Made by a program: the position numbers and the translations under genes | The notes under the pieces: model-generated | What the model saw: the letters and a program-made list of their open reading frames with translations, nothing else | Databases searched by the model: none | Told to the model about the DNA's origin: nothing | In this document: positions 1 through 32,000 of the stretch, piece by piece | Position numbering within the stretch: position 1 is the first letter of the stretch | How the letters are laid out: every line of letters begins with the position of its first letter | Source of the DNA: Candidatus Saccharimonadota bacterium | Lineage (GTDB): Archaea; Nanohalarchaeota; Nanosalinia; Nanosalinales; Nanosalinaceae | Length of the DNA: 32,000 nt | Direction of reading: 5' to 3' | Assembly: GCF_029232205.1 (NCBI RefSeq) | Contig: NZ_CP107255.1 | Span: 1-32,000, forward strand

Positions 1-198
1 TCTGCCGGAATCAGTGCAAAAGAAGAAAGCTCAGAGTTTTGTTAGATTCAGTTCGAACAGAATTGTTTTCTAGATGATTTTTGCGCGCGAAGATTTTCGA
101 GCAAATACTGAGAGGTTGATTTCATCAGGAGACCTGGACTTCATTCGGAGATCGAATTTTCTATTTTCGAGCTCGAGTATCTAAGCTCCAATGACCAG

Positions 199-227
199 AC
201 ACCCCTCTATTTCGAGTGGAATTTGTA
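199..227 (-). repeat. ORB-like origin recognition box with G-string, reverse orientation
   Basis: The reverse complement reads ttccactcgaaatagaggggtgt. This resembles the archaeal ORB core (TCCA..GAAA..GGGG) known from Orc1-adjacent origins. Confidence 0.55.
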
Positions 228-247
228 TCTAGAGACCGAGACTAGGA

Positions 248-293
248 TATAACGGCGGAATAAAATTATAACAGCGACATAATAATATAACAG
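248..293 (+). repeat. Three TATAAC(G/A)G direct repeats at exact 19-bp spacing inside the AT-rich core
   Basis: tataac starts at 248, 267 and 286 (tataacgg, tataacag, tataacag). An inverted gttata copy lies at 295-300. Confidence 0.6.
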
Positions 294-326
294 TGTTATA
301 TCTTTGTATAGTTAGTTTATAGAAAT

Positions 327-357
327 CTCTACATGAAATCAGGGGGTGGGTGGGGGT
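327..357 (+). repeat. ORB-like box with extended G-string, forward orientation
   Basis: Sequence is ctctacatgaaatcagggggtgggtggggg. It is inverted relative to the 199-227 box, on the other side of the AT-rich core. Confidence 0.55.
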
Positions 358-403
358 ACCGCCTTCGCTTCGATTGGAGAAGGATTATAAACCTTAATTT
401 CAA

Positions 404-459
404 GTAGAAAGTTACGGGGTTCGATTACAAAAATGAGATTTAATTCTGTTTACGGGGGG
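404..459 (+). repeat. Two proximal TTACGGGG(GG) elements, ORB-like G-string half sites
   Basis: gtagaaagttacgggg at 404-419 and ttctgtttacgggggg at 444-459. Both are in the same orientation and lie just upstream of the orc1 ATG at 469. Confidence 0.45.
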
Positions 460-468
460 ACGAGATAG

Positions 469-1674
469 ATGAGTCAGAGCAATCTGAAGTCAATGTTCTC
501 AAACTATCTCGACAAAGACTCTGTTTTCAAAAACAAAGACGCTCTTACCACCAGCTGGAAGCCAGACAACATTCTGCATCGTGATGATCAGATAAACGAT
601 CTGGCCTCGATTCTTGCACCGGCCCTAAAAGGAAATGATCCGAGCAACGTATTTCTGTACGGTTCTGTAGGTACTGGAAAGACTCTAATTGTAAAACACG
701 TTACTGAAGAACTGAAGGATGTAGCGGATGAGCAGGAGATCGACCTCAACGTACTGTATATTAACTGTAAAATGAAGAAGGTAGCTGACACCGAGTACCG
801 ACTTCTCGCAAAACTAGCCCGACAGCTTGGAGAGGACGTACCTAGCACAGGCCTTCCGACAGATGAAATCTATAATAGATTCTTTAACGCGCTGAAAGAT
901 CAGAAAGGTGTAGTAGTAATTGCACTGGACGAAATCGATGCATTAGTAAAAAAGGTTGGAGATGAGTTCCTCTACAATCTTACACGTATCAACGATGATC
1001 TAGAGGAGACCAAAGTTTCCATCCTGGGTATTTCCAACGATCTCAACTTCACAGAGTACATGGATTCCAGAGTCAAGTCCTCTCTGTCGGAGGAAGAGAT
1101 AATCTTCCCGCCTTACAATGCTCTCGAACTCAGAGAGATCTTGAAGGAGAGAACAGACAAGGCCTTTGTAGAGGACAAGCTTGAAGGAGGAGTTATCTCC
1201 AAGTGTTCGGCCCTTGCGGCTCAGGAGCACGGAGATGCTCGTAGAGCTCTTGACCTTCTCAGGGTTGCAGGAGAGCTTTGTGAGAGATCTGAGGAGGAGA
1301 AGATCTACAAGAAGCATGTTGATCGGGCCCAGGATAAGATCGAGCGCGATCGCATGGTTGAAACAGTTCGTTCACAGCCTAAGCAGTCAAAACTGGTTCT
1401 TTACACTATTCTACAGATGACTGAGGATGAGGACGAGATCGCTACGGGGGATGTATACAGCGAGTACAAGGAACTGTGTGAGGACGTAGATGTTTCAGAG
1501 CTCACGCAGAGAAGAGTTTCCGGCCTTATATCGGAGCTTGACATGCTAGGAGTAATCAATGCAAAAGTAATCAGTAAAGGCCGTTACGGCCGTACAAGAC
1601 AGATAAGCGTTGATCTTCCGGAAGAGATAAGAGCTCAACTGGAGGAAATGGTAGAGGAAAAATTCTACCTTTAA
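469..1674 (+). CDS. orc1: Orc1/Cdc6 replication initiator (AAA+ ATPase with C-terminal winged helix)
   Basis: 401-aa ORF with Walker A GSVGTGKT and Walker B VVIALDEID. The sensor/arginine region (GDARRALDLLR) is typical of the archaeal Orc1/Cdc6 family. Confidence 0.95.
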   Translation: MSQSNLKSMFSNYLDKDSVFKNKDALTTSWKPDNILHRDDQINDLASILAPALKGNDPSNVFLYGSVGTGKTLIVKHVTEELKDVADEQEIDLNVLYINCKMKKVADTEYRLLAKLARQLGEDVPSTGLPTDEIYNRFFNALKDQKGVVVIALDEIDALVKKVGDEFLYNLTRINDDLEETKVSILGISNDLNFTEYMDSRVKSSLSEEEIIFPPYNALELREILKERTDKAFVEDKLEGGVISKCSALAAQEHGDARRALDLLRVAGELCERSEEEKIYKKHVDRAQDKIERDRMVETVRSQPKQSKLVLYTILQMTEDEDEIATGDVYSEYKELCEDVDVSELTQRRVSGLISELDMLGVINAKVISKGRYGRTRQISVDLPEEIRAQLEEMVEEKFYL

Positions 1675-1707: not shown

Positions 1708-3279
1708 ATGAATGAAAAAGCACTCAAAGAGCTAACACAGCAAGGATGCATTATAGGCAAGGATGCAGCAGAAGGCCTGACAGAAGATGATGTAGAGGCG
1801 ATAAAAGGCCTTGATGTCACTCCGATGTATGTCTCCGAGATGATGCTAAATAATCTAAGGGAAAGAAGTAACAGTGTTGAGGAAGAAGTTGTACATGAAA
1901 CAGAGGGGGGCAAACTGGTAGAGAAGACAAAGCTCGAGGAAGAGCAAGATACATCTGACAACAGTTCTACTGACGAAGAAGTTGATCTGGGAGAGGAGTT
2001 TGACGAAACAAGCTCCAAGTTCAGCAAGGACAAGACAGTAAGAATCAAGGACGACAGAAACAGGTCCGAGATGCGTACCAAGGTAGAGATCCTTGATGAA
2101 ACAGATATTTCTGAAGATGAAAAAGATGTACCAGAGTTTCTGGGATATTACAACGATCGATACGATCGAATGAAAGACATGCTTATGCGGAGAATGGAGA
2201 TGAAATCCGCAACTTCTATCAAGAGGCTTGAATCACGTGACGAAGGCGACGAAGCCACTACTATAGGCCTTGTAAACGATAAATACTCGACACAGTCCGG
2301 AAAGTGGATAGTTGAAATTGAAGACAAGACTGGAACTTTCAAAGTGCTTGCAGATGAACGAGACGGAGAGAGAATAGTTCCTGACGAAGTAATCGGTGTA
2401 AGAGGAAATCTTGGAGGCGATATAATCTATGCTGACGATATTGTGAGGCCTGACCTACCGATCCCACAGGGAGTAAAAACCACTAAAGACGAGGTCTCCG
2501 CGGCCTATATCTCTGATTTCCACATGGGATCTCAGGATACTCTGAACAAGAGGCTGGATCGTTTCGCTGACTGGCTTGGAAGCTCGCAGGCGGAAAACGT
2601 TGGATACCTTGTAATTCCAGGCGATGTGGTTGAAGGAGTAGGAACATACCCGGGCCAGGAGGAGGAACTCGAGGTCACGGACATCTACAAACAGTACCAG
2701 CGATTCGAGGAATGGGTGGAAAAAGTACCGGAACATATTCAGATCCTTCTGGGCCCAGGAAACCACGATATTACACGTCTAGCAGAGCCACAGCCACGGA
2801 TTGCTGAGGACGCACTACCGACTATTTCAGACTTCAACAATGTGCACTTGGTACAGAACCCGCAGACTGTCAGGCTTCACGCAATCAGAAGCAAGGGTAT
2901 CAAGAATCTGATGTACCATGGATACAGTTTCGACGAACAGATCGATCAGATACAGTCCTTGAGGGAGAAGGCCTACGACGATCCAAGCCACGTAATGATC
3001 GACCTTCTGAAGAGAAGGCACCTGGCACCAACCTATGGATCCAACCTTGTATCTCCAGAAGGCCGTGACAACCTTGTAATAGAAAATAAACCAGATGTAT
3101 TCGTCGCTGGCCACCTTCACAGCCACGCAAACGAAAGCTACAAAGGAGTAAACGTAATTGCATCATCAACTTTCCAGGCACAGACAGACTTCCAGAAAAG
3201 AGTAGGCCACGAACCAGATCCTGGAAAAGTAACACTTGTCGACTTCAAAACCCGAAACACAGACGTCAAACAGTTCTAA
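1708..3279 (+). CDS. polD1: DNA polymerase II (PolD) small subunit DP1
   Basis: 523 aa with calcineurin-like phosphoesterase motifs DFHMGS, GDVVEG, GNHD and GHLH. An acidic low-complexity insert lies near the N-terminus. The gene sits immediately upstream of DP2. Confidence 0.9.
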   Translation: MNEKALKELTQQGCIIGKDAAEGLTEDDVEAIKGLDVTPMYVSEMMLNNLRERSNSVEEEVVHETEGGKLVEKTKLEEEQDTSDNSSTDEEVDLGEEFDETSSKFSKDKTVRIKDDRNRSEMRTKVEILDETDISEDEKDVPEFLGYYNDRYDRMKDMLMRRMEMKSATSIKRLESRDEGDEATTIGLVNDKYSTQSGKWIVEIEDKTGTFKVLADERDGERIVPDEVIGVRGNLGGDIIYADDIVRPDLPIPQGVKTTKDEVSAAYISDFHMGSQDTLNKRLDRFADWLGSSQAENVGYLVIPGDVVEGVGTYPGQEEELEVTDIYKQYQRFEEWVEKVPEHIQILLGPGNHDITRLAEPQPRIAEDALPTISDFNNVHLVQNPQTVRLHAIRSKGIKNLMYHGYSFDEQIDQIQSLREKAYDDPSHVMIDLLKRRHLAPTYGSNLVSPEGRDNLVIENKPDVFVAGHLHSHANESYKGVNVIASSTFQAQTDFQKRVGHEPDPGKVTLVDFKTRNTDVKQF

Positions 3280-3291
3280 AGTGATCACAAA

Positions 3292-6200
3292 ATGGATACA
3301 GAAAGCTACTTCAACAGTATAAGAGAGAAAACGGATAAAGCATACGATATAGCGGAAGAGGCCCGTGATCAGTCCAAGGATCCAGAACAGAGAGTTGACA
3401 TTCCTGTAGCAGAGGACCTGGCAGAAAAGGCCTCATCACTTGTAATTGCAGCAAAATTCCCTGAACTTGAAGATCAGGGAGTAGCTGAAAGAATTAGAGA
3501 ACTGGAAGACGAGTATGGAAAAAACGATGAAAGAGTATCCTTCTCGATCGCTAGAGAGATTGCAGAAGGAGAATTCACGGAGTTTGAAGATCTTGAAAGA
3601 GCATGTGAGGCCGGAGTCCGAGTAGGAGTCTCCTACATGACAGGAGGTATTACAACAGCACCTCTGGAAGGAATCGGCGATGTAAAGATAAGAGAGAATA
3701 ACGACGGCACGGAATACCTGGCAATGTACTACTCAGGCCCTATCCGTTCAGCAGGAGGAACAGCCTCCGCAATGTCAGTACTTCTCGCAGACTACGTCAG
3801 AATAGGTGTAGGCCTCGACAAATTCAAACCATCAGAGACAGTTGTAAACAGATATGCAGCCGAAGTAGACGACTACTACAACCGTGTAACCGCAAAACAG
3901 TACTATCCTGAAAGAGAGGAGACCTCGATGATTGCGGAAAATGTTCCAGTCGAAGTCACGGGGTCGCCAACAGAACAGATCGAAGTATCAAACTACAAAG
4001 ACCTGGACCTCATCGACACCAACCAGATCAGAGGAGGCATGTGTCTAGTATACCTCGACGGCCTACCACTGAAAGCCCCAAAGATCAAGAAAAGAATAGA
4101 GAAATGGGGCAAGGACTTCGGCCTCGAACACTGGGAATGGGTAAAAGACTACCTCGACCTGCAGAAAGAAATCCACTCATCAGGAAGCGACGATGAGGAA
4201 GACGACGGAGAGGCCAAGGAAAAATCAAAATACACGCCATCCGACAAATACCTGGGATCGCTGACCGCAGGAAGGCCTATATTCGCGCATCCAGGAAGAA
4301 AAGGAGGATTCAGGCTGCGGTACGGTCACTCAAGAACCAACGGCCTCGCAGCAGTATCGATGCACCCGGCCACACTGGAGATCTCCCAGAGATTTATCGC
4401 AATAGGAACACAGCTGAAGACCGAATACCCTATGAAAGGTACAGTGGCCACTCCATGCGACTCAATACATCCGCCTGTCGTCAAACTGAAGAACGGCGAC
4501 GTCAAGAAAATTGAGTCAAGAGAAGAGGCCCGAGAAATAGAGAAAGACGTTGAAGAAATCCTCTTCATGGGCGACATGCTCGTAACATACGGAGAGTTCG
4601 TGGAAAACGGCAAGAAACTTCTTCCTTCTCCTTATGTGTCTGAATGGTGGGAGAAAGATCTTGAAAAGGCACTTGAAGAACAGAACGTCAAACTAGGCCG
4701 GGACTTCTCCGAGAGAGATCCTACGCCAGAAGAGGCCATGAAGATTAGCGACAAACTCGGAATCAGGCTGCACCCAAAATGGACATACCACTGGAAAGAC
4801 ACATCACCAGAGAAATTCCAGGCCCTATACCAGTCAATGAGAGAAGGAGAACTCAAGGGAGAAAAAACTGAAAGAGCACTCGAAGATCTACTTGTTCAGC
4901 ACGAAAAAGAAGGAGGCCAGATCAAGGTCAGAAAACAGGATCTAAAGGCCCTCAAACTTCTGCTCAAACCAGAAGAAGATAATAAGGATGTAGTAGAGTC
5001 AGCGCAGTCAGGAAGAGGTATAGTTGATGCAGTCGAGGAAATATCTGGTGTAGAGCTTGGTGATCCAGCACCTCACTACCTTGGAGCCAGAATGGGCCGA
5101 CCGGAGAAAGCAGAGCGCAGAACACTTAACGGAAAGCCACAGCTTCTATTCCCGTGTGGAAAGGAGGAAGGAGGCCGAATGAGAAATCTTGTCGCTTCCT
5201 ACAACCAGACAATGCATGGAGACAAGGGAATAGTCAAAGAGCAAATTGTACAGAACTACTGTACTGAATGCGAGAAAAAATCATACTATCCTTACTGCCG
5301 TGACTGCGGAGAGCCAACAGAACCTCTATGGGTCTGCAGCGACTGCGGAAAAACATACAGAGAAGAAACAGAAGTCTGCGGAAAATGCGGCAACGAATGG
5401 ATCAAAAGACATGAATACACCGACATCAACGTCCGAGAAATGATGGACGATGCCTTGGAAAACCTCGGAATGAACAGGCCACCGGAACTACTGAAATCTT
5501 TCCGTGGAATGACCTCAAAAACCAAGATAGTCGAGCCAATCGAAAAAGGCCTTCTAAGAAAAAAGCACGACCTCTACGTCAACAAAGACGGAACAGTAAG
5601 ATATGACGCAACAGACATCCCGATGACACACTTCAAGCCGAAAGAGGCCGGTGTGTCGGTAGAGAAGCTCAGAGAACTTGGCTACGAAAAAGATATTAAC
5701 GGAGAGTCTCTGGAAAACGAGGATCAGGTACTTGAGATGAAGCCGCAGGACATCATTATCCCTGACGGCGACATGAGCCTGGCGGCCTCCGACTACATGC
5801 TTAGAGTAACTCAATACATCGACGAGCTACTGGAAAAATTCTACGGCCTGGACCCGTACTACGAGGCCGAAGGAAAAGAAGATCTGGTAGGAGAACTAGT
5901 CATAGGCCTGGCACCGCACACCTCAGGAGGAACAGTCGGCCGTATAATCGGCTTCACGGATGCAAAAGGAATTTACGCACACCCTTACTGGCATGCAGCC
6001 AAGAGAAGGAACTGTGATGGTGACGAAGACGCTATACTGCTTATGATGGACGGATTACTGAATTTCTCCCGTAAATACCTCCCTGACATGACAGGCGCGC
6101 GTACAATGGATGCTCCATTGATTTTATCGACTGTGCTGAATCCTGACGAGGTTGACGACGAGGCCTGGGCCGTTGAGACTGTTGATGATTATCCTCTCAG

Positions 6201-6798
6201 TTTTTACGAGGAGACTCAGAAGTACAAGGAGCCGTGGAATCTTGAGACAGATATCGAGATAGGTGAGGATATTGTCCACAGCGATCAGCCGTATTCTCAC
6301 GACTACACGATTGAGACTTCGGATATTGATGATGGGCCTTCTCAGTCGGAGTACGTGACTCTGGATGATATGGATGAGAAGACTACCAACCAGCTGAAAT
6401 TGGGGGAGAGGATCCGGGCCGTTGATGAAAACGCGGTGGCTGATCTATTGCTGGACAAGCACTTTATTCCTGATATCAAGGGTAACTTGCGTTCGTTTTC
6501 AAGTCAGAAGATGCGCTGCGTTGATTGCAACGAGAAGTTCCGTAGAGTACCTATGACCAATCAGACGATCGCACCGACAGGAAAGACTACAGCCCGGTGT
6601 CCGGAATGCGACGGAAAAGTTCTTCTAACAATCTCGGAGGGAACGATCAAAAAGTATCTGGAGCCTTCCAAGAGAATTATTGATAATTATGAGGTATCCC
6701 CGTACATCAGGCAGCAAATCCTGATTCTTAACAAGACTATTCAGAGTCTTTTCGGCAAAAGCGATAGGCAGACGGGCCTGAAACAGTTTGCGAGCTGA
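3292..6798 (+). CDS. polD2: DNA polymerase II (PolD) large catalytic subunit DP2
   Basis: 1168 aa with multiple Cys4 zinc modules (CTECEKKSYYPYCRDCG; CSDCGK..CGKCG; CVDCNEKF..CPECDG) and conserved DP2 blocks (GLAPHTSGG, NCDGDEDA). The length argues against an intein. Confidence 0.95.
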   Translation: MDTESYFNSIREKTDKAYDIAEEARDQSKDPEQRVDIPVAEDLAEKASSLVIAAKFPELEDQGVAERIRELEDEYGKNDERVSFSIAREIAEGEFTEFEDLERACEAGVRVGVSYMTGGITTAPLEGIGDVKIRENNDGTEYLAMYYSGPIRSAGGTASAMSVLLADYVRIGVGLDKFKPSETVVNRYAAEVDDYYNRVTAKQYYPEREETSMIAENVPVEVTGSPTEQIEVSNYKDLDLIDTNQIRGGMCLVYLDGLPLKAPKIKKRIEKWGKDFGLEHWEWVKDYLDLQKEIHSSGSDDEEDDGEAKEKSKYTPSDKYLGSLTAGRPIFAHPGRKGGFRLRYGHSRTNGLAAVSMHPATLEISQRFIAIGTQLKTEYPMKGTVATPCDSIHPPVVKLKNGDVKKIESREEAREIEKDVEEILFMGDMLVTYGEFVENGKKLLPSPYVSEWWEKDLEKALEEQNVKLGRDFSERDPTPEEAMKISDKLGIRLHPKWTYHWKDTSPEKFQALYQSMREGELKGEKTERALEDLLVQHEKEGGQIKVRKQDLKALKLLLKPEEDNKDVVESAQSGRGIVDAVEEISGVELGDPAPHYLGARMGRPEKAERRTLNGKPQLLFPCGKEEGGRMRNLVASYNQTMHGDKGIVKEQIVQNYCTECEKKSYYPYCRDCGEPTEPLWVCSDCGKTYREETEVCGKCGNEWIKRHEYTDINVREMMDDALENLGMNRPPELLKSFRGMTSKTKIVEPIEKGLLRKKHDLYVNKDGTVRYDATDIPMTHFKPKEAGVSVEKLRELGYEKDINGESLENEDQVLEMKPQDIIIPDGDMSLAASDYMLRVTQYIDELLEKFYGLDPYYEAEGKEDLVGELVIGLAPHTSGGTVGRIIGFTDAKGIYAHPYWHAAKRRNCDGDEDAILLMMDGLLNFSRKYLPDMTGARTMDAPLILSTVLNPDEVDDEAWAVETVDDYPLSFYEETQKYKEPWNLETDIEIGEDIVHSDQPYSHDYTIETSDIDDGPSQSEYVTLDDMDEKTTNQLKLGERIRAVDENAVADLLLDKHFIPDIKGNLRSFSSQKMRCVDCNEKFRRVPMTNQTIAPTGKTTARCPECDGKVLLTISEGTIKKYLEPSKRIIDNYEVSPYIRQQILILNKTIQSLFGKSDRQTGLKQFAS

Positions 6799-6841
6799 AA
6801 GACCGAAACATTCAATAGGTTCATTTCTTCCATTTCTCATT

Positions 6842-7261
6842 ATGGACGGAAAAGTAAAACTGAAGGAGGTTATGACGGAAGGCGTAGTAGCCGTAGACGC
6901 AGACAGTAACGTAGTAGAGGCAGCGAGCAAGCTTCGGCAGGAAGATATCAGAGGCCTTGTCGTAATTGAAGACGAGGATGCAGTCGGAGTAGTGGTCTGC
7001 AGAGATATAGCATACGATGTGATCGCAGATGGCGAAGAGGCAAGAGAAACTGAAGTAAAAGATATAATGAGCACAGATCTGATTGTAGCAGACGAAGACG
7101 AGCTGCTTGACGATGTTGCAATGGCAATGTCGAAAAACAACGTCTCCAGAGTTCCAGTAGTCAGAGGAGACATGCTTGTAGGGATCGTAACCCAGTCAGA
7201 TATTCTAAGAGCATGGCCTGGATTCGCAGAAGTCATGCAGGAAAAAGAGGTGTCAGAATAA
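6842..7261 (+). CDS. CBS-domain pair protein (paralog 1)
   Basis: The track ORF starts at 6788, overlapping the polD2 end. The ATG at 6842 (MDGKVKLKEVMTEG) aligns with the N-terminus of the downstream paralog. It carries two CBS repeats. Confidence 0.8.
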   Translation: MDGKVKLKEVMTEGVVAVDADSNVVEAASKLRQEDIRGLVVIEDEDAVGVVVCRDIAYDVIADGEEARETEVKDIMSTDLIVADEDELLDDVAMAMSKNNVSRVPVVRGDMLVGIVTQSDILRAWPGFAEVMQEKEVSE

Positions 7262-7262: not shown

Positions 7263-7799
7263 ATGAGCATAGACAGTGAAGTAAAGGTAAAAGAACTGAT
7301 GACAGAAGGAGTCATCGCAGTAAAACAGGATAAAACAGTAAAAGAAGCAGCCCAGCTACTCAAAGAAGAAGGAATCAGAGGCCTTGTCGTAGTCGACGAA
7401 GAAGAGGCCGTAGGAGTAGTAGTCTGCAGAGACATCGTGTACCAGGTAGTAGCTGACAACAAGGATCCTGAAGAAGTACTTGTCAAAGATATAATGAGCA
7501 CAGACCTCGTAGTAGCTGATGAGGATGAGCTGCTTGACGATGTTGCAATGGCAATGGCCCGCAACGACATTTCAAGAGTTCCAGTGGTCAGAGAGGACAT
7601 GCTTGTAGGGATCCTGACACAGACTGATATTCTACGTGCATGGCCTGGATACGCAGAGGTCATGGGGGAGGAAATTGAGATGCAGGCAGAGGCCACTCCG
7701 CGCCAGACCACCAGAGAGGGTATGTGCGAGAACTGTGAGAACTACAGCGAGAACCTCCAGGAAACAAACGGAATGCTTCTATGTGAGGAATGCCGGTAA
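7263..7799 (+). CDS. CBS-domain pair protein with C-terminal CxxC..CxxC zinc ribbon (paralog 2)
   Basis: 178 aa. It is highly similar to 6842-7261 at both DNA and protein level. The extra tail reads CENCENYSENLQETNGMLLCEEC. Confidence 0.85.
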   Translation: MSIDSEVKVKELMTEGVIAVKQDKTVKEAAQLLKEEGIRGLVVVDEEEAVGVVVCRDIVYQVVADNKDPEEVLVKDIMSTDLVVADEDELLDDVAMAMARNDISRVPVVREDMLVGILTQTDILRAWPGYAEVMGEEIEMQAEATPRQTTREGMCENCENYSENLQETNGMLLCEECR

Positions 7800-7852: not shown

Positions 7853-8317
7853 ATGGGCATGCATATCACCGAGGAAGTAGACAGGAGAAGGCTTACACTC
7901 AAGGTTGAAGACCCGGAAGAAGTCTACTCCTCCATGAAAATGCTTCTTGAGGACAGAATCAAGTTCTCCTCGGTGAACGAAGAAAAATACTACAACGACG
8001 TCGACGGCAAAGACATCAGAGCCAAAATCGTCACAGTCTTCGGCATGGACCATCTAACCCATGAAACCATGGAAATCTTTCTCCACATCGACAGAGAGGC
8101 CTCAGAACTCGATATACAGCTGAAGGCCAAGCTCGAGACAGAGTACCCAACCCATAAATCGTGGCAGGATTCTCTGATCTACTACGCGTACAGATCGCTG
8201 TACGACAAGTTCCTGTATGGGGAAACACGTGAAGGTTACGAACACGCAGTGGAGGAAAGAGTAGACCTGCTTATGGACTACATCAAGGACGATATGGAGG
8301 CGGATTACAGTGGTTAA
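7853..8317 (+). CDS. Uncharacterised acidic protein, member A of a three-paralog operon
   Basis: The track ORF starts at 7790, but the ATG at 7853 follows a TATA-like box. It shares the pattern EDPxx(V/I)Yxx(M/I)KxLL ... W/Y..(Y)(N/D)KF(L/Y)..E...YE with the next ORF. Confidence 0.65.
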   Translation: MGMHITEEVDRRRLTLKVEDPEEVYSSMKMLLEDRIKFSSVNEEKYYNDVDGKDIRAKIVTVFGMDHLTHETMEIFLHIDREASELDIQLKAKLETEYPTHKSWQDSLIYYAYRSLYDKFLYGETREGYEHAVEERVDLLMDYIKDDMEADYSG

Positions 8318-8930
8318 ATACGAGCACGACGCGCTTTCCAAACAGGATCACTACTTCGTAAAAGAGGATCCGGCCCGAATCTACAGAGGAATCAAGGATC
8401 TACTCGTCGAAGAATTTGACATGGACAGGATCGAGGAAGGAAGAAACGAGTTCTCGGTAACAGGCCCTAAAGACAAGATAAGGCTGCACGCATTCAAGGA
8501 GAAAGGCCGCAACACAGTACTGTACTTCAACCTTTCCTGGAGAGTAAAAACTCCGAAAAGCATCTACACGCACGACTCAAGGCCTGATGACATCAAAAAA
8601 GTCAGGGTAAAAACTACTGGAAGAGTAATCACTGTTTATCCGGGTGGAAACGCAGAGATATTCGAGCCTTATGCAATTACACAGTATCCACAGGAAAACT
8701 ACGATGCAACGCACCTTGAAGATGAGAAAACACAGTTCCAGAGATCAAAATTTTACAAGATACTTGTAGGAATCTGGTACAACAAGTTCTACTCGAAAGA
8801 AATACACAAGTACGAGGAAGAGGCCTCGGAAATAGTTGTACGGCTTCAAAACCTGATGAGAGAAAAGTTCGGAGTGGAGGACGGTATCGTCCGCACAGGA
8901 AGCTCCCACTACACTCCTCCATGGCAGTGA
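8310..8930 (+). CDS. Uncharacterised protein, member B of the three-paralog operon
   Basis: 206 aa. The GTG start overlaps the upstream stop by 8 nt. It is collinear in similarity with member A, and its C-terminus ends HYTPPWQ. Confidence 0.65.
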   Translation: MVKYEHDALSKQDHYFVKEDPARIYRGIKDLLVEEFDMDRIEEGRNEFSVTGPKDKIRLHAFKEKGRNTVLYFNLSWRVKTPKSIYTHDSRPDDIKKVRVKTTGRVITVYPGGNAEIFEPYAITQYPQENYDATHLEDEKTQFQRSKFYKILVGIWYNKFYSKEIHKYEEEASEIVVRLQNLMREKFGVEDGIVRTGSSHYTPPWQ

Positions 8931-8936
8931 TAGAAA

Positions 8937-9617
8937 ATGTCTGATGACGAAGAACCTGGCTTTTTCGGAAAAATGATGTGCTGGCTTCACACGCCGAAAA
9001 CCGAGAACAGCGACTGGGAACACGACAAGTTCCACGAAAAAGACGATATCTGGCACCACGAACACCTTTTTGAAGGCCACTGGGTGGAGATACAGAACAA
9101 GGCCGAGTGGTATGAAAGCCCGAATATTGTCAGCATCTACAAGGACCACAAGTACATCTTCAACCAGAATATGGAGCTTGACAAGCCTTCTGAGACGTTC
9201 TACTATGAAAACGTGGACAGCGGCGAGTTTGAATCTGTTATGGAGGTAAAGGAAGACCTTCCAAGTAAGCATGGAAAACTTAAACTTACTACAAATCCTG
9301 CAACTCAGAGCCCTCCCTCAGGAGACAATGATTTCGGCCTGATCGAGTACTGGGTAAAGCTAGAGGTAAAATACAGCTTTCCCGATGGAATTAACTGGCT
9401 TCCAAGAATCTTCGCCTATCCGTTGAATCGTTTCTTCAAGAAATGGTTTGTGAACAGGATTGGAGAGGAAATGATCGAGTACGACATCGAGTACGCAAGG
9501 GAGAGGCTGACAGAGTACTTCGACTACATCAGAAAATACCATGGAGAGGAGCCTGTCCAGACAAAGACACGTCAGGAGGTCTATACTCCGCCGACCGATG
9601 GGCCTTTCTTCCAGTAG
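8937..9617 (+). CDS. Uncharacterised protein, member C of the three-paralog operon
   Basis: 226 aa, starting 6 nt after member B. Its C-terminal helix region (FFKKWFVNRIGEEMIEYDIEYARERLTEYFDYIRKY) resembles those of A and B. The tail contains VYTPPTDGPFFQ. Confidence 0.65.
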   Translation: MSDDEEPGFFGKMMCWLHTPKTENSDWEHDKFHEKDDIWHHEHLFEGHWVEIQNKAEWYESPNIVSIYKDHKYIFNQNMELDKPSETFYYENVDSGEFESVMEVKEDLPSKHGKLKLTTNPATQSPPSGDNDFGLIEYWVKLEVKYSFPDGINWLPRIFAYPLNRFFKKWFVNRIGEEMIEYDIEYARERLTEYFDYIRKYHGEEPVQTKTRQEVYTPPTDGPFFQ

Positions 9618-9660
9618 AAACTTTCCCAGAGCTAAAAGGTTAACTATCGTATTGTTTGAT

Positions 9661-9752
9661 GAGGAAGGTAACTTCCTCAATTCGGCTGCCCTCGGTCAGC
9701 AGGTGCTACCGTACGGGACTACAGGGATGATCATCTGTGTTACAGGGCAGCC
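9661..9752 (+). promoter_or_regulatory. Candidate structured RNA leader or small ncRNA in the spacer upstream of DUF167-dnaG
   Basis: Perfect hairpin gaggaag-GTAA-cttcctc at 9661-9678 with a GNRA-type loop. A 9-bp long-range stem pairs ggctgccct (9684-9692) with agggcagcc (9744-9752), enclosing two smaller hairpins. Confidence 0.3.
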
Positions 9753-9786
9753 ACACTACTTTTATCCTCAGAGAGGAGGCCCTGAA

Positions 9787-10041
9787 ATGACAGAATTCTA
9801 CATCAAAGTTAAACCAGATAGCAACGAGTTCCGTGTTGAAGAAGGAAGTTTTCCCGAGTTCTATCTTGAATCAAAGGCCGAGAATGGGAAAGCTAATTCA
9901 GAGTTACTAAGCAAACTGGAAAATATACTGGGGCAGAGGCCTGGAATTGTTTCCGGCCACAAAAGCAGCAGGAAGAAGATCAAGGTCGACCTATCTCGGG
10001 ACGAGGTAGATCGAAAACTGGAGGCTGAAATCAATGGGTAA
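9787..10041 (+). CDS. DUF167 (YggU-like) family protein
   Basis: The 84-aa core matches the DUF167 pattern (..KAENGKANSELLSKLENILG...VSGHKSSRKKIKV). The ATG at 9787 is preceded by gagaggagg, a Shine-Dalgarno-like sequence. The track ORF start at 9541 overlaps the previous gene and is judged an artefactual extension. Confidence 0.7.
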   Translation: MTEFYIKVKPDSNEFRVEEGSFPEFYLESKAENGKANSELLSKLENILGQRPGIVSGHKSSRKKIKVDLSRDEVDRKLEAEING

Positions 10042-11593: not shown

Positions 11594-11670
11594 AAAACAC
11601 AATTTATAGGCCAAAACTTAAACATTTGTTCGAAGATACATTAATATACAAGCTATACGTATAACATAGT

Positions 11671-11781
11671 ATGGAATCGGTCGAGGTCGACGAATGTATG
11701 GTCTGCGGCGAAGACGTCAAAGGCGGAATGAAGACGTCAGAAGGCCCGGTCCACGAAGTCTGCATGTCAAGCCTGTTCTAG
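11671..11781 (+). CDS. Candidate 36-aa zinc-finger-like micro-protein (CxxC...HxxC)
   Basis: Hand translation gives MESVEVDECMVCGEDVKGGMKTSEGPVHEVCMSSLF*. It is absent from the ORF track because it is too short. It is locally GC-richer than the flanking promoter DNA. The TATA-like ttaatataca lies ~25 nt upstream of the ATG, consistent with a leaderless transcript. Confidence 0.4.
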   Translation: MESVEVDECMVCGEDVKGGMKTSEGPVHEVCMSSLF

Positions 11782-11800
11782 TTCTTTCTAATTGCATTTT

Positions 11801-19702: not shown

Positions 19703-19748
19703 TTCTGTTTCTTACTGTGTGAATGTGTGGAAAATGTTTTCTGCTTTT

Positions 19749-25187: not shown

Positions 25188-25257
25188 ATCAGGCCTGTGT
25201 TGTGAGTATTATGGAGGCCTGAGGAGAGGAAATAGGGGGAGAAAGTGAAGTGGTGTG

Positions 25258-25773
25258 TTATCTTTCTGCGTCGTAGTGCTGGTAGAGGTCGTGGGAGTCC
25301 CAGTCTTTGGCGTCTTCAGGGTCGTAGCCTAGTTCTTCTATGGCTTCTGTGAGTTCTTGCTGTGTTGGGGCCTCGATTTCCAGTAGTGCTGGTATGTCTG
25401 GGTACCAGTCGATGACGTATTCTATTCGGCCGTGGTGCCATTTGGCTCTGGTCTTTTCGCTTTTGTGTATCTGTTGGAGGCCTAGTGATGTGAGTAGTTC
25501 GCGGGCTTCATCCATGTCGCTGACTTCGAATTCGATTTCGTTCATTATTTTGGCGCCGTCCTGGTTTTCTTCATCTTCTTTTCTGGTGAGAATGGTCTCT
25601 GACCCTAGCCTTCGGAGTCGAAGTATGCCGTTTTCCTCGATGCGGCCGTCTTCGTAGTCGTAGAACTCTGACTGTACTTTGCCTTCGAATTTTTTCTCTG
25701 CGTTCATCTCCTGCATTTTTCTGCGTACTTTGGCAGGATCTACTTCCAGTATCTTGGCCTCGATCTCCTTCAT
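25258..25773 (-). CDS. CYTH-domain protein (CyaB-type class IV adenylyl cyclase / triphosphatase family)
   Basis: 171 aa with the N-terminal ExExK signature (EIEAKI) and the alternating charged beta-strand pattern of CYTH. Confidence 0.75.
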   Translation of the reverse strand: MKEIEAKILEVDPAKVRRKMQEMNAEKKFEGKVQSEFYDYEDGRIEENGILRLRRLGSETILTRKEDEENQDGAKIMNEIEFEVSDMDEARELLTSLGLQQIHKSEKTRAKWHHGRIEYVIDWYPDIPALLEIEAPTQQELTEAIEELGYDPEDAKDWDSHDLYQHYDAER

Positions 25774-26517: not shown

Positions 26518-27363
26518 TTAGTGGGTTTCTTCGCTGGTTTCTTTGTTGTAGTCGGTCTCAGAGTTGTAGCTGTCTTCCTCTGATTCTGACTTTTCTTTGC
26601 TATGTGAGTAGTCCTTCTCTTTGTAGCTTTCCTTGTCTGAGTCTGATTCTTCTTCGTGCTTGCTGGTTTCTTTCTCGCTCTCAGAAGATTCTTTTGTTTC
26701 TTCTTTGGTCTTGTTGTAGTTGCTGCTGTCTTTCTTGCTTTCGGATGAGTCTTTCTCATCGTATTCGCTTCTGTTTTCTTCTTCTGAGCTGTTCTTGTTC
26801 TTGTAGCTTTCATCGCTGCTGTCTTTCTCAGATGAAGAACTTTCCTTCTTCTTGTGGTCTTTGTACTCCTTCTCGTAATCTATGGAGTAGGAGACGCTTC
26901 CGGTCTGTAGGTGGTCAAGAGAGGATTCGTACTTCTGCTTGTAGGTCTGTGTCTTCTGCTTCTGCTCGAGGTACATGTTTCTGTACTTTTCGAGCTTTTC
27001 TTTTTCCTTCTCGTAGAGATCCTTGTATCTCTCATAGTTCTCTTTCTGATCCTTGTTCAGTTTCTTGTAGTGGTTGAGCTGTTCCCGGCTTTGCTCTAGA
27101 TCTTTCTTCATCTCTTGGGATGTTTGCTTCTCTGAGTTGTACCTCTGCTTGTACTTGTCAGCAGTTTCCTTCCAGTCAGACATCTCTTTCTCATACTTGT
27201 CTACCTTCTTCTCTAGACTGACAATCTTCTGATGCATGTCTGCCCTGTCATCGTACTCGTAATCCCCGTTAGACCAGTTACTGCTCGCAGCTACAGTACC
27301 GATCCCGGCAACCGAAGCAACAAGGCCTATAGCCATGAGGGAAACTAAAACTTGCTTGTTCAT
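26518..27363 (-). CDS. Secreted Tyr/Lys/Glu/Ser-rich coiled-coil and low-complexity protein
   Basis: It has a signal peptide (MNKQVLVSLMAIGLVASVAGIGTVAASS) and a strong SD (ggaggtga) 8 nt upstream of the ATG. The first half is coiled-coil-like, and the second half is S/E/K/D low complexity with recurrent (D/E/S)-Y-(K/N/E). Confidence 0.7.
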   Translation of the reverse strand: MNKQVLVSLMAIGLVASVAGIGTVAASSNWSNGDYEYDDRADMHQKIVSLEKKVDKYEKEMSDWKETADKYKQRYNSEKQTSQEMKKDLEQSREQLNHYKKLNKDQKENYERYKDLYEKEKEKLEKYRNMYLEQKQKTQTYKQKYESSLDHLQTGSVSYSIDYEKEYKDHKKKESSSSEKDSSDESYKNKNSSEEENRSEYDEKDSSESKKDSSNYNKTKEETKESSESEKETSKHEEESDSDKESYKEKDYSHSKEKSESEEDSYNSETDYNKETSEETH

Positions 27364-28583: not shown

Positions 28584-28611
28584 TTAATAGGAATGTTTAA
28601 AAAGTTATTAA
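28584..28611. promoter_or_regulatory. Dyad TTAATA-N16-TATTAA in the nikR/ZIP divergent spacer (candidate NikR operator)
   Basis: Half sites lie at 28584-28589 and 28606-28611, exactly 16 nt apart. This matches the E. coli NikR operator spacing (GTATGA-N16-TCATAC). The AT-rich context lowers the significance. Confidence 0.3.
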
Positions 28612-28624
28612 AGATGTCTTTGTT

Positions 28625-29356
28625 ATGATAATACAGAACGTAATCTACAGTCTTGCAATTGCATCAGGCCTCTCCGCACTGGGAGCTCTATTTCTGGGCC
28701 TTAACGAGGAGAAAACTGAAAAAATAATTCCTTATCTAATTTCTCTATCTGCTGGCACAATTTTTGGCGGGGTTTTCATACACTTAGTGTTCAAGATGGC
28801 GAACAACATTGGCTATACTCGTGAGACTGGAGTTCTTGTGCTTCTGGGCCTTGCAGGATCTCTAGGTCTTGAAAGAGCTGTCCACTGGCACTGCCACAAC
28901 AATGATCATCACGTAGATGCTATCTCATATGTGCTTCTTGCAGGAGATGCAGTCCACAACGTTCTGGACGGGTTTCTGATTGCTACAAGCTATATTGTAG
29001 GTCCTGCCGCAGGTCTTGCATCGACCATTGCTATCGTGATGCACAAGATTCCGAAAGAGGCCGGTGACTATGGTATTCTGGTTGACAGCGGTATTTCAAA
29101 GGTTAGAGCTGTGCTCTTCAATATCTTGATCAGCCTGTTCATGTTTATAGGTGCTGCAGCGGTGCTTGTCTCAACTCAGTATGTTAGCGGCCTTGAGAAG
29201 TTCCTGCTTCCGCTTGTGATCGGTAACTTTGTCTATATTGCGGGTAGCGATCTTCTTCCGAGGATAAAGGAGAGGCAGATGGGAGCTCACCTACTGTTCT
29301 TCGTACTGGGCGTGGCTGTGATGTATGCTATTCCTTACGTTAAGGCCGCTATCTAG
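28625..29356 (+). CDS. ZIP-family divalent metal transporter (ZupT-like)
   Basis: 243 aa with multiple TM helices, a His-rich loop (HWHCHNNDHHVD), and signature HNVLDGFLIA and HKIPKEAGDYGIL. Confidence 0.85.
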   Translation: MIIQNVIYSLAIASGLSALGALFLGLNEEKTEKIIPYLISLSAGTIFGGVFIHLVFKMANNIGYTRETGVLVLLGLAGSLGLERAVHWHCHNNDHHVDAISYVLLAGDAVHNVLDGFLIATSYIVGPAAGLASTIAIVMHKIPKEAGDYGILVDSGISKVRAVLFNILISLFMFIGAAAVLVSTQYVSGLEKFLLPLVIGNFVYIAGSDLLPRIKERQMGAHLLFFVLGVAVMYAIPYVKAAI

Positions 29357-29409
29357 GCCTTTTCATTTTTCCCTAATTTTTAGTTCTTGAGAAGAGAAAA
29401 GGAGAAGAG

Positions 29410-30087
29410 TCATCCCTGTGTTGGGATGTACTGTGATACTTTGAGGGCGAGTTCCTGGACGGGTAGTGACTGGATCCAGACTGTGCCCGGGCCTTCGAGT
29501 GTTGTTAGGAAGAGGCCTTCGCCTCCGAAAAGCGCGTTTTTTACTCCCTTCACTCTTTCAACATTGTATTTCATTCCTTTGTCGAATGCTACGACGCTGC
29601 CTGTATCGACTTTTATTTTCTGGCCTTGCTGTAGCTGTATTTCGTCGACTTCTCCTCCTGCGTTGAGGAAGGCCATTCCTGGGCCCTGTACTTTTGTCAT
29701 TTTGAATCCTTCTCCTCCAAGTAGGCCTGATGCCAGGCTGGTTGTGAATTCTGTGTCGAGGTTGCCTGATTCGCTGCATAGGAATGCGTCTTCCTGTGCG
29801 AGTACTTCTCTGCCCTGGTCAAGGTCTAGTGCTATTACGTCTCCGGGGAATTCTGCTGCGAAGTTGATTATTCCTTCTCCTTGTTGTGTTGAGAATGTGG
29901 TTACGAAGAATGATTCTCCTGAGATTGATCTTTTGACTGAGGACATGAGGCCTCCAGAGGCCGAGGTCTGCATTTCGACGTTGTCGCTCATGTAGCTCAT
30001 TTTGCCTGTTTCTGCGACTATTTCCTCTCCAGGCTGGATTTTTACTTCGAGGAAGGGTGAGAAGTCTCCTTTGATTCTGTATTCCAT
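29410..30087 (-). CDS. AIM24 / TIGR00266 (DUF124) family protein
   Basis: 225 aa. The pattern L.V.L.pGE.i.AE.G.M.YM...v...T plus GESFF.TTF is typical of this family. Confidence 0.75.
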   Translation of the reverse strand: MEYRIKGDFSPFLEVKIQPGEEIVAETGKMSYMSDNVEMQTSASGGLMSSVKRSISGESFFVTTFSTQQGEGIINFAAEFPGDVIALDLDQGREVLAQEDAFLCSESGNLDTEFTTSLASGLLGGEGFKMTKVQGPGMAFLNAGGEVDEIQLQQGQKIKVDTGSVVAFDKGMKYNVERVKGVKNALFGGEGLFLTTLEGPGTVWIQSLPVQELALKVSQYIPTQG

Positions 30088-30128
30088 AAGAGTTGATTGG
30101 AGGCCTTGTTGAAAAGCTTTCTTTTGAT

Positions 30129-31196
30129 TCAGTCTATAAAGTCCTTTACTGTTTCGAAGAAGGTTTTGCTTTCCTCTTTCTCTCTTCTGAGTTCTTCCAT
30201 GACTTCTCGTTGTTCCTCAGAGAGTTTTTCCGGTATCTCAACGTCTACCTTGATGAACAGGTCTCCTGTTCTGCGACCTCTTCTGGAAGGCATTCCCTTG
30301 TCTTTGACTCTCAGTACCTGGCCTGGCTGTGTTCCGCTTGGTATGTCTACCTGGATTTCCGAGTCCGGTGTCGGAACTGTTATCTGTGTGCCCAGTGATG
30401 CATCGCCGACTCCTATTTTTGCGGTTGTGAATAGGTCGTTGTCTCGTCTTTCCAGTGAGTCATGTGGTTCAACGGTGACTCTGATTATCAGGTCTCCTGG
30501 TCTGCCGTTTGATTCGTTTCCTTTGCCTGCGACTTTCAGTCTCTGTCCATCCTTAACTCCTGAAGGAATGTCTACTGTAATGGTTTCCTTCTGTTCTGTA
30601 AGGCCTTCTCCGTTACATTCCGAGCATTTAGTTTCGGGTATGTTTCCTGTTCCGTTGCACTGCGGGCATTCTGTTACTGTCTGTGTGCGGCCGAAAGGTG
30701 TTCTCTGAACCTGTCTTACCTGGCCCTGACCCTCACACTCTGTGCATGTTGATGTGTTGCCGTTTTCTGCCCCACTACCGTTACATTCCGGACATTCCTT
30801 TCTTCTTTTTACCTGGAAGCTTTTTTCAATTCCCTTGTAGGCCTCTTCCAGTGTTATCGATGTCTGGATTCTAAGATTCTGGCCTGAGCTGCGGCCTCTT
30901 CCACCTCCTCCGAAAAGATGCTCGAAAATATCCTGGAAGTTCTGTGATGCTCTCTGCTGTCCTGCACGTGCGTTTCCTTCTACGCCCTGTTTGCCGAATC
31001 TGTCGTATTTCTTCCTTTTTTCTTCGTCTGAGAGAACGTCGTAGGCCTTGTTAATCTTCTTGAACTTTTCCTCATCAGCTGTATCAGAATTTGAGTCTGG
31101 GTGGTATTTTTTGGCCTTTTTTCTGTAGGCCTTTTTGATTTCGTCCTGGCTTGCGTCTTCGCTGACTCCTAGAAGTTCGTAGTATTCTTTCGCCAA
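30129..31196 (-). CDS. dnaJ: Molecular chaperone DnaJ (type I)
   Basis: It has a J-domain with HPD (KKYHPD), a G-rich linker and four CxxCxGxG zinc-finger repeats. It uses a TTG start. Confidence 0.95.
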
Positions 31197-31277
31197 CGAA
31201 CTTTCACCAAAGTTTGATCATGGTTAAACCGCTTGCAGTGGCTTCTGGATTTTTGAAAGAAAGAGGAGAGGAGGACA

Positions 31278-32000
31278 TTATTCCTCTTCCTCGTCGGTGT
31301 CTACTTCTTCGTAGTCTGCGTCGACTACGTCGTCTCCTCCTGCTCCAGATTCTCCGCCCATTCCTCCCATGTTCTGGGCTGCCTGTTTGAGGTCTTCTTC
31401 GCTCATGTTGGAAGGGTCGAAACCTGCACCTCCCATTCCACCAGGACCTCCTTGCTGGCCGTCGTACATTTCTTTGCCGATTTCTTGGAGGGATTCTTCG
31501 AGGCCTTCGATTGCGTCTTCGATTGTTTCTTTCGCCTCTTCGAGGTCTTCAATCTCCTCTGCTTCCTCTCGTGCTTCCTGTACTTCTTCGATTGCGTCTT
31601 CAATTTTCTCGGTTATTTCTTCGTCTACTTCGTCTTCGAAGTTGTCGAGCTGGGTTTCTGCCTGACTGATCATCTGGTCGGCCTTGTTCTTGGCCTCGAT
31701 GAACTCGCGTTTCTTCCGGTCTTCTTCCTCGTGTTTCTCTGCTTCTTCCTTCATTTCCTCGATTTCATCTTCGTCAAGTCGGGAAGTATCATCGATACTG
31801 ATTGAGGCCTCTTCTCCGCTCTGCTGTTCTTCTGCAGATACTTGTAGGATGCCGTCTGCGTCGATTTCGAATGTTACGTCGATTTGTGGCTGGCCTGCTG
31901 GTGCTGGTGGGAGTCCTTCGAGGTTGAACTGGCCTAGTGATTTGTTGTCGGAGGCCATTTCTCTTTCTCCCTGTACTACGTTGATGGTTACTGCTGTCTG
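31278..32000 (-). CDS. dnaK: Molecular chaperone DnaK (Hsp70), C-terminal part only; the gene continues beyond the window edge
   Basis: The frame is open to the window end (..[51 protein letters not shown]..). The lid domain and GGMGG-rich tail end in [18 protein letters not shown]. Confidence 0.95.

Follow-up and report, generated by a model that had tools for sequence, protein, structure and literature searches.

In a subset of the Nanohaloarchaeota, the palindromic hexamer AGGCCT occurs as a highly iterated palindrome (HIP). The first 32,000 nucleotides of contig NZ_CP107255.1 (the window) were analysed, and an exact search across this whole length identified a total of 85 copies of AGGCCT, one copy per 376 bp (~2.7 per kb). 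Base composition predicts 6.2 copies, so the excess in the window is 13.6-fold. A preliminary description of the same DNA had estimated 80 to 90 copies, one per 350 to 400 bp, with 5 to 10 predicted from base composition, and the exact figures fall within each of these ranges.

It is almost certain that the excess is real and that it reflects a lineage-specific pressure at the level of the DNA. This genome-wide pressure acts on DNA, not on protein or translation, and installs the best match to AGGCCT wherever coding allows. It fixes synonymous codons, nudges amino acids, and fills the spacers to the density seen in genes. A new copy is less favoured when another copy is present within ~20-60 bp. 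Codon usage, repeats, and artefacts are excluded as the cause of the excess. No paper in the literature searched ties AGGCCT abundance to nanohaloarchaea or to any other archaeon, just as the preliminary description knew of none for halophilic archaea, and this is rated here as the first archaeal case of highly iterated palindromes, a kind of element hitherto known from cyanobacteria only.

Abundance and codon context in the window

AGGCCT ranks first by count among all 4,096 hexamers of the window. The 100 dinucleotide-preserving shuffles contained 7.2 ± 2.6 copies, with a maximum of 13. It also has the highest z-score of any hexamer at Markov orders 0 to 2 (z = 31.5, 29.1, and 12.4), while no other palindromic hexamer in the window is above 2-fold. 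For orders 0, 1, 2, 3, and 4 the expected counts are 6.2, 7.1, 24.0, 56.3, and 81.6. The expectation is high at orders 3 and 4 because AGGC, GGCC, GCCT, AGGCC, and GGCCT are swollen by the same phenomenon. The maximal-order model, with 81.6 copies expected against the 85 observed, was therefore rejected as a test: its sub-words AGGCC (142) and GGCCT (146) are inflated by the motif itself, making the model uninformative here rather than a refutation.

The dominance of the A- and T-flanked form among GGCC tetramers, already apparent on inspection, is seen in the exact counts. There are 254 GGCC in the window; 85 are AGGCCT and 203 have at least one of the two flanks. Beyond the hexamer, the 10 positions on each side are near background composition. 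Since the flanks are close to random, the copies are not part of a longer repeat, and a dispersed repeat or miniature inverted-repeat transposable element (MITE) is ruled out. Three regions had been described as sparse in AGGCCT. Their counts are as described, with none before position 849, one in 12361-13285, and one in 26518-27363, but none of the three is significant at this density; the chance of finding no copy in 848 bp is ~0.1 at the density of the window.

For the codon analysis 38 gene calls were used, covering 87% of the window. Within genes there are 73 copies, 17 as AGG-CCT, 20 as nAG-GCC-Tnn, and 36 as nnA-GGC-CTn, while 12 are outside genes or across a gene end, 10 of these being fully intergenic. 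All three codon phases and the spacers are thus occupied, as the preliminary description had claimed. It had also allowed that the enrichment might disappear under a null preserving codons and dinucleotides, or be explained by Gly-Leu, Lys-Ala, and Arg-Pro usage. Neither was found. When synonymous codons are shuffled gene by gene, 15.2 ± 3.4 copies are obtained (maximum 25), and a shuffle that keeps amino acids, codon usage, and dinucleotides gives 42.0 ± 3.9 (maximum 52), against 73 observed. In the 4,168 nt of non-coding sequence (39% GC) there are 10 copies where 0.52 are expected, an enrichment of ~19-fold, and the non-coding density of 2.4 per kb is on a par with the 2.6 per kb in genes. 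The codon shuffles and the spacer counts bear out the inference first drawn from inspection, that the enrichment is independent of reading frame and arises at the DNA level.

A position is permissive where the peptide allows AGGCCT by synonymous choice alone. The permissive contexts are Arg-Pro, Lys, Glu or Gln followed by Ala and a residue with a T-initial codon, and a residue with an A-ending codon followed by Gly-Leu. There are 105 such positions in the window and AGGCCT is present at 73 (70%). Occupancy by phase is 0.68, 0.62, and 0.75, and the wobble bases in these phases are G3 and T6, G2 and C5, and A1 and C4. As the wobble positions differ between phases while the occupancy is similar, all six bases of the motif are driven. 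AGG-CCT encodes 17 of the 25 Arg-Pro dipeptides, although AGG accounts for 19% of Arg codons and CCT for 39% of Pro codons.

Ordinary codon, codon-pair or dipeptide preference, a dispersed repeat, or an assembly artefact has next to no probability as an explanation, even though the dinucleotide-preserving codon shuffle does lift the expectation to 42 and higher-order Markov models absorb the excess. Both codon-preserving nulls stay well below the observed count, every phase is affected, and the spacers are as enriched as described above. The flanks are not conserved. The same peptides are encoded with the motif in some related genomes and without it in others, and the pattern is repeated in independent assemblies from different laboratories.

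Distribution among nanohaloarchaea

Housekeeping proteins encoded in the window include Orc1, both DNA polymerase D subunits, DnaG, RadA, and RPA. When the polymerase large subunit was searched against the GTDB species representatives, to which the window's own genome does not belong, the matches placed the window in the Nanohaloarchaeota (DPANN). The preliminary description had spoken of a halophilic archaeon; the source is a DPANN nanohaloarchaeon and not a classical haloarchaeon. The closest complete genome is M3_22, placed in the genus Ca. Nanohalovita (PMC10266531), with 90% amino acid identity in the polymerase D large subunit. The window and M3_22 (L001) share 80-87% nucleotide identity and full synteny, and AGGCCT is 10-fold enriched at the M3_22 locus.

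The trait is bimodal among syntenic nanohaloarchaeal loci. The comparison with related genomes that had been suggested found eight loci that are AGGCCT-rich, at 10-21-fold: the window, M3_22, L011, SG9, L021, L025, Nanosalina VS9-1, and L007. In these, 60-78% of permissive positions are occupied. Eleven equally distant nanohaloarchaea are AGGCCT-poor, at ~0-2.7-fold, with occupancies of 0-26% that are mostly 3-9%. Permissive peptide contexts are themselves denser in the rich lineages (3.8-5.1 per kb) than in the poor (2.5-3.4 per kb). Amino acids track the motif, with KAF in rich and KGF in poor lineages in Orc1, and KAC against RAC and VGL against VDL in the polymerase.

Many of the copies in the window are present at orthologous positions in other rich genomes: 25 of 40 in M3_22, 10 of 12 in L011, and 9-13 of 12-20 in the other rich clades. 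This retention of 62-83% compares with a hexamer-identity background of 12-29%. In equally distant poor genomes, 0-1 of 15-19 window sites (0-6%) are kept.

A bootstrapped neighbour-joining tree of the polymerase contains three rich clades, each with 99.5-100% bootstrap support, interleaved with poor lineages. The poor L005 is the sister of the rich pair L006 and L007 with 100% bootstrap support. L006 has 75% nucleotide identity to L005 and 74% to L007, but sites are shared in 26 of 35 cases between L006 and L007, against 3 of 25 between L006 and L005. On this contrast the trait is evolutionarily labile.

Of the positions that are empty in the window but permissive in both genomes, L003 has AGGCCT at 6 of 7 and L021 at 5 of 7, which means that each clade is under the pressure in parallel. 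Inside the window's own clade the occupancy state is correlated (odds ratio 21, P = 0.002). The sharing of AGGCCT across clades is largely parallel saturation under continuing pressure. Positional conservation was considered as proof of shared ancestry or of site-specific selection, and this argument is weakened, as cross-clade occupancy is high whatever the state of the other clade. Parallel saturation also tempers the argument used for HIP1, the highly iterated palindrome of cyanobacteria, which goes from conservation to selection on single sites.

A second palindrome, GATATC, was considered as an 'alternate HIP' of the AGGCCT-poor nanohaloarchaea and rejected, being 2-5-fold enriched in almost all lineages, the rich ones included. 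It is at 2-5-fold in most loci (L001-L025, L034, and L054) and at ~1-fold in the window, L040, and L012. The GATATC excess probably stems from Asp-Ile (GAT-ATC) pairs in the acidic proteome rather than from a second iterated palindrome.

Recognition of the motif and candidate causes

The use of near-matches was measured at positions where the full AGGCCT is impossible and compared with the use of the same variants in poor genomes. The usage ratio is 3.0-5.1 for variants with a mismatch at position 1 or 6, 1.05-1.8 for position 2 or 5, and 0.9-1.2 for position 3 or 4. GGCC is thus an obligatory core, with a quantitative contribution from the outer A and T. Half-sites are 2.2-3.5-fold enriched in the window's clade, where the half-site excess peaks and where the full-site enrichment is approximately the square of the half-site value. 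In the SG9 clade, half-sites are at 1.1-1.25-fold and full sites at 15-20-fold. GGCC without both flanks is depleted (0.3-0.45) in most nanohaloarchaea and is at 1.1 in the window. A GGCC-directed restriction pressure thus seems to be common among nanohaloarchaea. In L018 (NHA25, JALDAJ010000001.1) there is no AGGCCT, and GGCC is present 10 times against 81 expected; in L055, GGCC is absent against 22.8 expected. These counts suggest active GGCC-specific restriction in L018 and L055, a regime opposite to that of the window.

Copies of AGGCCT avoid one another at short range. Pairs less than 20 bp apart number 8 in the pooled rich loci against 32.8 expected. When the permissive coding positions were held fixed and the occupied subset was permuted, occupied pairs within 20, 40, and 60 bp numbered 4, 23, and 40, against 11.5, 32.5, and 53.3 under permutation (P = 0.0005, 0.008, and 0.003). 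Empty permissive positions are closer to an existing copy than occupied ones, with median distances of 107 bp and 133 bp (P = 0.003). This is consistent with diminishing returns from a second nearby AGGCCT. The spacing effect is seen as short-range interference, 32 kb being too short for periodicity at tens of kilobases.

The analogy with HIP1 made in the preliminary description is closer than was proposed. Like HIP1 (GCGATCGC) and the alternate HIPs, AGGCCT is a short GC-rich palindrome that dominates the word spectrum, is present in all frames and in spacers, does not result from codon usage, and is kept at orthologous positions. Both are patchy among related lineages, have one-mismatch variants that are mostly outermost, and show non-random spacing, in the case of AGGCCT at short range. 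The properties of HIP1 used for this comparison are those reported in PMC4390886 and PMC5861425; cyanobacterial HIPs co-occur with cognate orphan methyltransferases and deviate mainly at the outer positions (PMC4390886), and HIP1 sites are conserved (PMC5861425). The alternate HIPs are palindromes of five or six bases that are linked to cognate methyltransferases. A genome is HIP1-rich at an observed/expected ratio of ~16 or more (PMC5861425), and AGGCCT reaches 13.6 in the window and 10-21 across seven related loci, a comparison that is approximate since the threshold was set for an octamer. When methylated, cyanobacterial HIPs enhance transformation (bioRxiv 10.1101/2024.09.10.611283). AGGCCT differs from HIP1 in being archaeal, from a DPANN ectosymbiont with a genome of ~1 Mb, and in being a hexamer of different sequence. 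The candidate enzyme here is a single orphan N4-methylcytosine (m4C) methyltransferase, whereas HIP1 has a pair, for 5-methylcytosine (m5C) at CGATCG and N6-methyladenine (m6A) at GATC. Permissive occupancy of AGGCCT was measured, at the 60-78% given above; its methylation and its link to a methyltransferase are putative.

Other dispersed words share some of these features. The uptake signal sequences (USS) of Pasteurellaceae, the DNA uptake sequences (DUS) of Neisseriaceae, and Chi also have thousands of dispersed copies, in genes and in all frames, with proteins accommodating them; they serve as a 'self' mark, and their accumulation can be explained by molecular drive. They differ from AGGCCT in being 8-12 nt, asymmetric and orientation-dependent, with known machinery (competence pili, RecBCD). 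AGGCCT was rejected as an uptake signal sequence in the sense of an asymmetric 9-12 nt motif, since it is a 6-nt palindrome without extended conserved flanks. Systems of the StuI type (AGGCCT) and the HaeIII type (GGCC) have the same recognition sequence and methylate cytosine within the site; that of Alcanivorax borkumensis methylates AgGCcT, at the second cytosine (PMC12128166). The depletion of GGCC outside the AGGCCT context in most nanohaloarchaea is as expected under GGCC restriction, but targets of restriction systems are normally neutral or avoided and AGGCCT is 10-21-fold enriched. With this enrichment, and with M3_22 listed without a restriction enzyme, AGGCCT was rejected as the target of an active type II restriction-modification system. 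The Dcm/Vsr bias at CCWGG in E. coli is alike in that repair tied to a methyltransferase site skews word frequencies. It differs in concerning one C/T position only, in having small effects, and in needing m5C and Vsr. A bias of this kind was also rejected, because all six positions are driven and AGGTCT/AGACCT and AGGCTT/AAGCCT are without depletion. Of the causes put forward in the preliminary description, Vsr-type repair therefore fits poorly, while a methyltransferase target, a binding site, and a recognition or uptake tag are still in play.

The pressure is present in three clades and absent from interleaved relatives, and its cause must therefore be easily gained or lost. We infer that this cause is a sequence-specific, two-fold symmetric DNA-recognition protein. 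The recognition factor may well be a methyltransferase, although this falls slightly short of being probable, and the most likely candidate would be an orphan m4C DNA methyltransferase with a specificity like that of StuI or HaeIII. The leading explanation, held tentatively and with a little less than even confidence, is that AGGCCT is targeted by such an orphan methyltransferase and that the marked sites are favoured in repair, recombination or exchange. The orphan enzyme would recognise AGGCCT; the marked sites would be retained through bettering the fate of the cell's own DNA in these processes, as has been proposed for HIP1; and copies would pile up until most of the DNA lay near one. In a survey of complete archaeal genomes in REBASE, the sole restriction-modification gene of M3_22 is an m4C type II methyltransferase, and the genome is listed without a restriction enzyme, Vsr or an m5C methyltransferase (PMC10609329, Tables 1-2 and supplement).

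Several points weigh against the methyltransferase explanation. No DNA methyltransferase or nuclease was found in the window or in the syntenic loci; Pfam and NCBIfam scans of 30 window open reading frames (ORFs) of the ~38 called genes identified housekeeping functions only (orc1, DNA polymerase D, CBS-domain proteins, DnaG, Lrp, RadA, and RPA), and a contig search with the terminal genes of the window returned one 1.2-kb Logan contig and nothing else. The methyltransferase of M3_22 has no assigned specificity and is a candidate only. For Ca. Nanohalovita BNXNv, a congener of M3_22, the published annotation names a type III system and no other (PMC10266531). Single-molecule real-time (SMRT) sequencing of the nanohaloarchaeon SVXNc, which may or may not be AGGCCT-rich, detected only GDGCHC methylation. 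The Halobacteria have a near-universal orphan m4C methyltransferase for CTAG (PMC10609329), and CTAG is depleted in Haloferax volcanii pHV4 (L060) and pHV3 (L061), with observed/expected ratios of 0.33 and 0.10; an orphan methyltransferase alone therefore does not enrich its site. The half-site preference looks more like a read-out of binding energy than like the all-or-none specificity of a type II enzyme. The compared loci are also homologous, and the pooled P-values for spacing overstate independence.

It is possible, though unlikely, that AGGCCT is the binding site of an abundant dimeric protein of architectural or partition type, without methylation, with selection keeping ~1 copy per 250-400 bp. 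Such a protein would suit the graded and roughly additive half-site preference in the window's clade (13.6-fold for the full site, 3.5-fold for the half), the interference between nearby copies, and the equal density of genes and spacers even though the spacers are unconstrained. However, half-sites at 1.1-fold beside full sites at 15-20-fold in the L003 clade are all-or-none and enzyme-like, and a global system would need to be gained or lost between sister lineages at ~75% nucleotide identity. There is also no candidate protein. Similarly unlikely is a self-recognition tag for DNA exchange or recombination, comparable to USS/DUS and Chi and spread by molecular drive without direct benefit to the cell, where DNA rich in copies is preferentially taken up, spared degradation or recombined. 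The whole motif is driven rather than one mutational step, and amino acid sequences are bent to fit AGGCCT, as with uptake sequences. A role in DNA uptake or recombination is now proposed for HIP1, and the giant surface proteins of nanohaloarchaea bear a VirB4/TraG-like ATPase domain (PMC10266531). Against the tag, six base pairs hold little discriminating information, the uptake sequences known so far are, like Chi, asymmetric and 8-12 nt, and competence or DNA import is undocumented for nanohaloarchaea. In its favour, a representative of the host genus is poor in the motif. Haloferax is the host genus of Ca. Nanohalovita, and two 50-kb samples of Haloferax volcanii replicons contain 2 and 5 copies of AGGCCT, or 0.04-0.10 per kb (observed/expected 0.13-0.29), against 2.7 per kb here. 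The symbiont DNA is 27-66 times richer in AGGCCT than this host-genus DNA, of which 100 kb was sampled; part of the Haloferax deficit comes from the codon structure of a GC-rich genome. A bolder form of the tag, and a rather improbable one, is that AGGCCT is a 'self' mark by which an obligate ectosymbiont that scavenges host nucleic acids and shares cytoplasmic bridges tells its own chromosome from host DNA. A factor dependent on methyl-AGGCCT would protect, repair or recombine tagged DNA, and untagged DNA would be degraded. A change of host or loss of the factor would then lead to loss of the tag and to the on/off pattern among sister lineages.

Repair of the very-short-patch type has a far smaller chance of being the cause. 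In this case (A)GGCC(T) would be the target of an m5C methyltransferase, and a Vsr- or Mig-like enzyme, either an endonuclease or a glycosylase for T:G mismatches, would turn TG/CA near-cognates into cognate sites. GGCC methylation and a T:G glycosylase do exist together in a methanogen plasmid (Mig.MthI), and the orthologous positions in poor relatives are often AGGTCT or AGACCT (4-6 of 17-19, in L018 and L022). These AGGTCT-type differences are, however, plain synonymous alternatives, and AGGTCT and AGACCT together are at 0.6-3.5 times expectation in rich genomes, without depletion, as is also true of AGGCTT/AAGCCT. The very-short-patch effect in E. coli is modest. Such repair fixes a C/T position only, and all six positions here are driven about equally, as the phase occupancies of 0.68, 0.62, and 0.75 indicate. 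It would in addition need enzymes that M3_22 is listed as lacking, both an m5C methyltransferase and Vsr (PMC10609329).

In the ~30 years since the description of HIP1, it has not been explained why some genomes become saturated with a single short palindrome. The nanohaloarchaea are an independent and simpler system, with genomes of ~1 Mb and a closest complete genome credited with one DNA methyltransferase. The trait differs between sister lineages with ~75% nucleotide identity, and co-cultures and PacBio data exist for relatives such as BNXNv, SVXNc, and LC1Nh. With small genomes, one reported methyltransferase, and on/off sisters, phylogenetic profiling could therefore point at the causal gene. 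For HIP1, an association with gene presence and absence, corrected for phylogeny, has already been run (bioRxiv 10.64898/2026.06.24.733823). AGGCCT distorts codon usage and k-mer signatures, which affects binning, the detection of horizontal transfer, and codon-based estimates of expression. It may also mark contigs, plasmids or viruses as belonging to AGGCCT-rich nanohaloarchaea.

Individual copies and other observations

The 85 copies identified by exact search start at positions 849, 1160, 1773, 1806, 2265, 2446, 2969, 3428, 3810, 4273, 5547, 5904, 6161, 6952, 7379, 7799, 8097, 8580, 8821, 9937, 10144, 10884, 10967, 11317, 12007, 12144, 12182, 12302, 12892, 13434, 13543, 13732, 13822, 14339, 14506, 14601, 15569, 15842, 16406, 17249, 17333, 17513, 17552, 17675, 17995, 18113, 18239, 18303, 19193, 19951, 20264, 20772, 20967, 21294, 21899, 22330, 23416, 23716, 23752, 23811, 24364, 24813, 24920, 24959, 25035, 25191, 25215, 25478, 26338, 26469, 27323, 27764, 28079, 28666, 29355, 29513, 29723, 29948, 30101, 30601, 30839, 31043, 31127, 31501, and 31805. 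Three of the spacer coordinates in the preliminary description had slipped, with 14602, 17955, and 27765 given for 14601, 17995, and 27764, while its three examples of reading frame, in the copies at 849, 1160, and 2446, are correct.

In orc1, the copy at 849-854 (plus strand, amino acid 127) is in phase 2 as acA GGC CTt and encodes Thr-Gly-Leu. All 20 aligned nanohaloarchaea have the identical peptide, and the motif encodes it in 6 of 7 rich genomes against 1 of 13 poor ones. Further into the same gene, the copy at 1160-1165 (plus strand, amino acid 231) is in phase 1 as aAG GCC Ttt, encoding Lys-Ala-Phe. Here all 7 rich genomes and 1 of the 13 poor ones carry the motif, and the column is K/E-A-F in rich lineages and mostly K-G-F in poor ones. 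The phase-0 copy at 2446-2451 (plus strand), AGG CCT for Arg-Pro in the DNA polymerase D small subunit, lies at a position that carries the motif in 6 of 7 rich genomes and 2 of 15 poor ones. At 3428-3433 (plus strand), a phase-1 copy encodes Lys-Ala-Ser at amino acid 46 of the polymerase D large subunit; the peptide is unchanged across all 23 genomes, and the motif is found in all 8 rich genomes and in 2 of the 15 poor ones. Five further copies in the large subunit (3810, 4273, 5547, 5904, and 6161) are likewise common to other rich clades.

By ORF coordinates, two copies begin at the second base of a stop codon. One, at 15842-15847 (plus strand), is across the 3' end of the gene at 14884-15843, with its stop codon at 15841-15843, and the other, at 29355-29360, is across the stop codon of the gene at 28625-29356. 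TAGGCCTT is among the commonest 8-mers of the window. Two intergenic copies (25191 and 25215, spanning 25191-25220) are downstream of the minus-strand gene at 25258-25773. Other fully intergenic copies are at 14601, 17995, 19193, 25035, 26469, 27764, and 30101.

The copy at 13434-13439 overlaps the 5' end of an intron-containing tRNA gene of ~152 nt (13286-13437, minus strand), which was found by Rfam (RF00005, 46 bits) and missed by ARAGORN. This tRNA gene is 96% identical in M3_22, and in three more distant nanohaloarchaeal loci, L018, L022, and L025, a stretch of 40-50 nt from the 5' end of the gene (window 13393-13442) has 91-100% identity.

IMG/VR was scanned with a three-copy AGGCCT pattern, for which there are ~2 hits per 100 kb even in rich genomes. 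The scan returned mostly tandem repeats and is too insensitive to judge nanohaloarchaeal viruses. One hit, IMGVR_UViG_2791354938_000002 (L119, contig 8150-20011), is a tailed prophage of an isolate genome with an HK97-type head module and a terminase 52% identical to Lactobacillus delbrueckii phage terminases. At 42.6% GC it has 26 dispersed copies of AGGCCT in 11.9 kb (13.9-fold), with 22 of 37 permissive positions occupied, and TGGCCA is also 5.9-fold enriched. The L. delbrueckii phage c5 has no AGGCCT enrichment. It seems that there is a similar saturation with AGGCCT in some Lactobacillales-like bacterium and its prophage. A second viral contig, IMGVR_UViG_3300030392_001562 (L161, 48.9% GC), encodes a DnaB-like helicase and has AGGCCT as its top hexamer, with 22 copies in 12.5 kb (7.8-fold) and 13 of 40 permissive positions occupied.

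The contig JBLGBK010000014.1 (L014), deposited as part of a 'Colwellia polaris' metagenome-assembled genome (MAG), encodes a polymerase D large subunit of nanohaloarchaeal type (71% identical) and groups with the nanohaloarchaea in the tree. It is likely to be a mis-binned contig. The large-subunit match extends over ~4.9 kb in L014, L017, L022, L025, L051, and others, against 3.5 kb in the window (3292-6798), which suggests an intein or insertion that is missing from the window. The adjacent CBS-domain genes at 6788-7261 and 7263-7799 are paralogues of each other, and they cross-match at ~72% nucleotide identity in comparisons with relatives.

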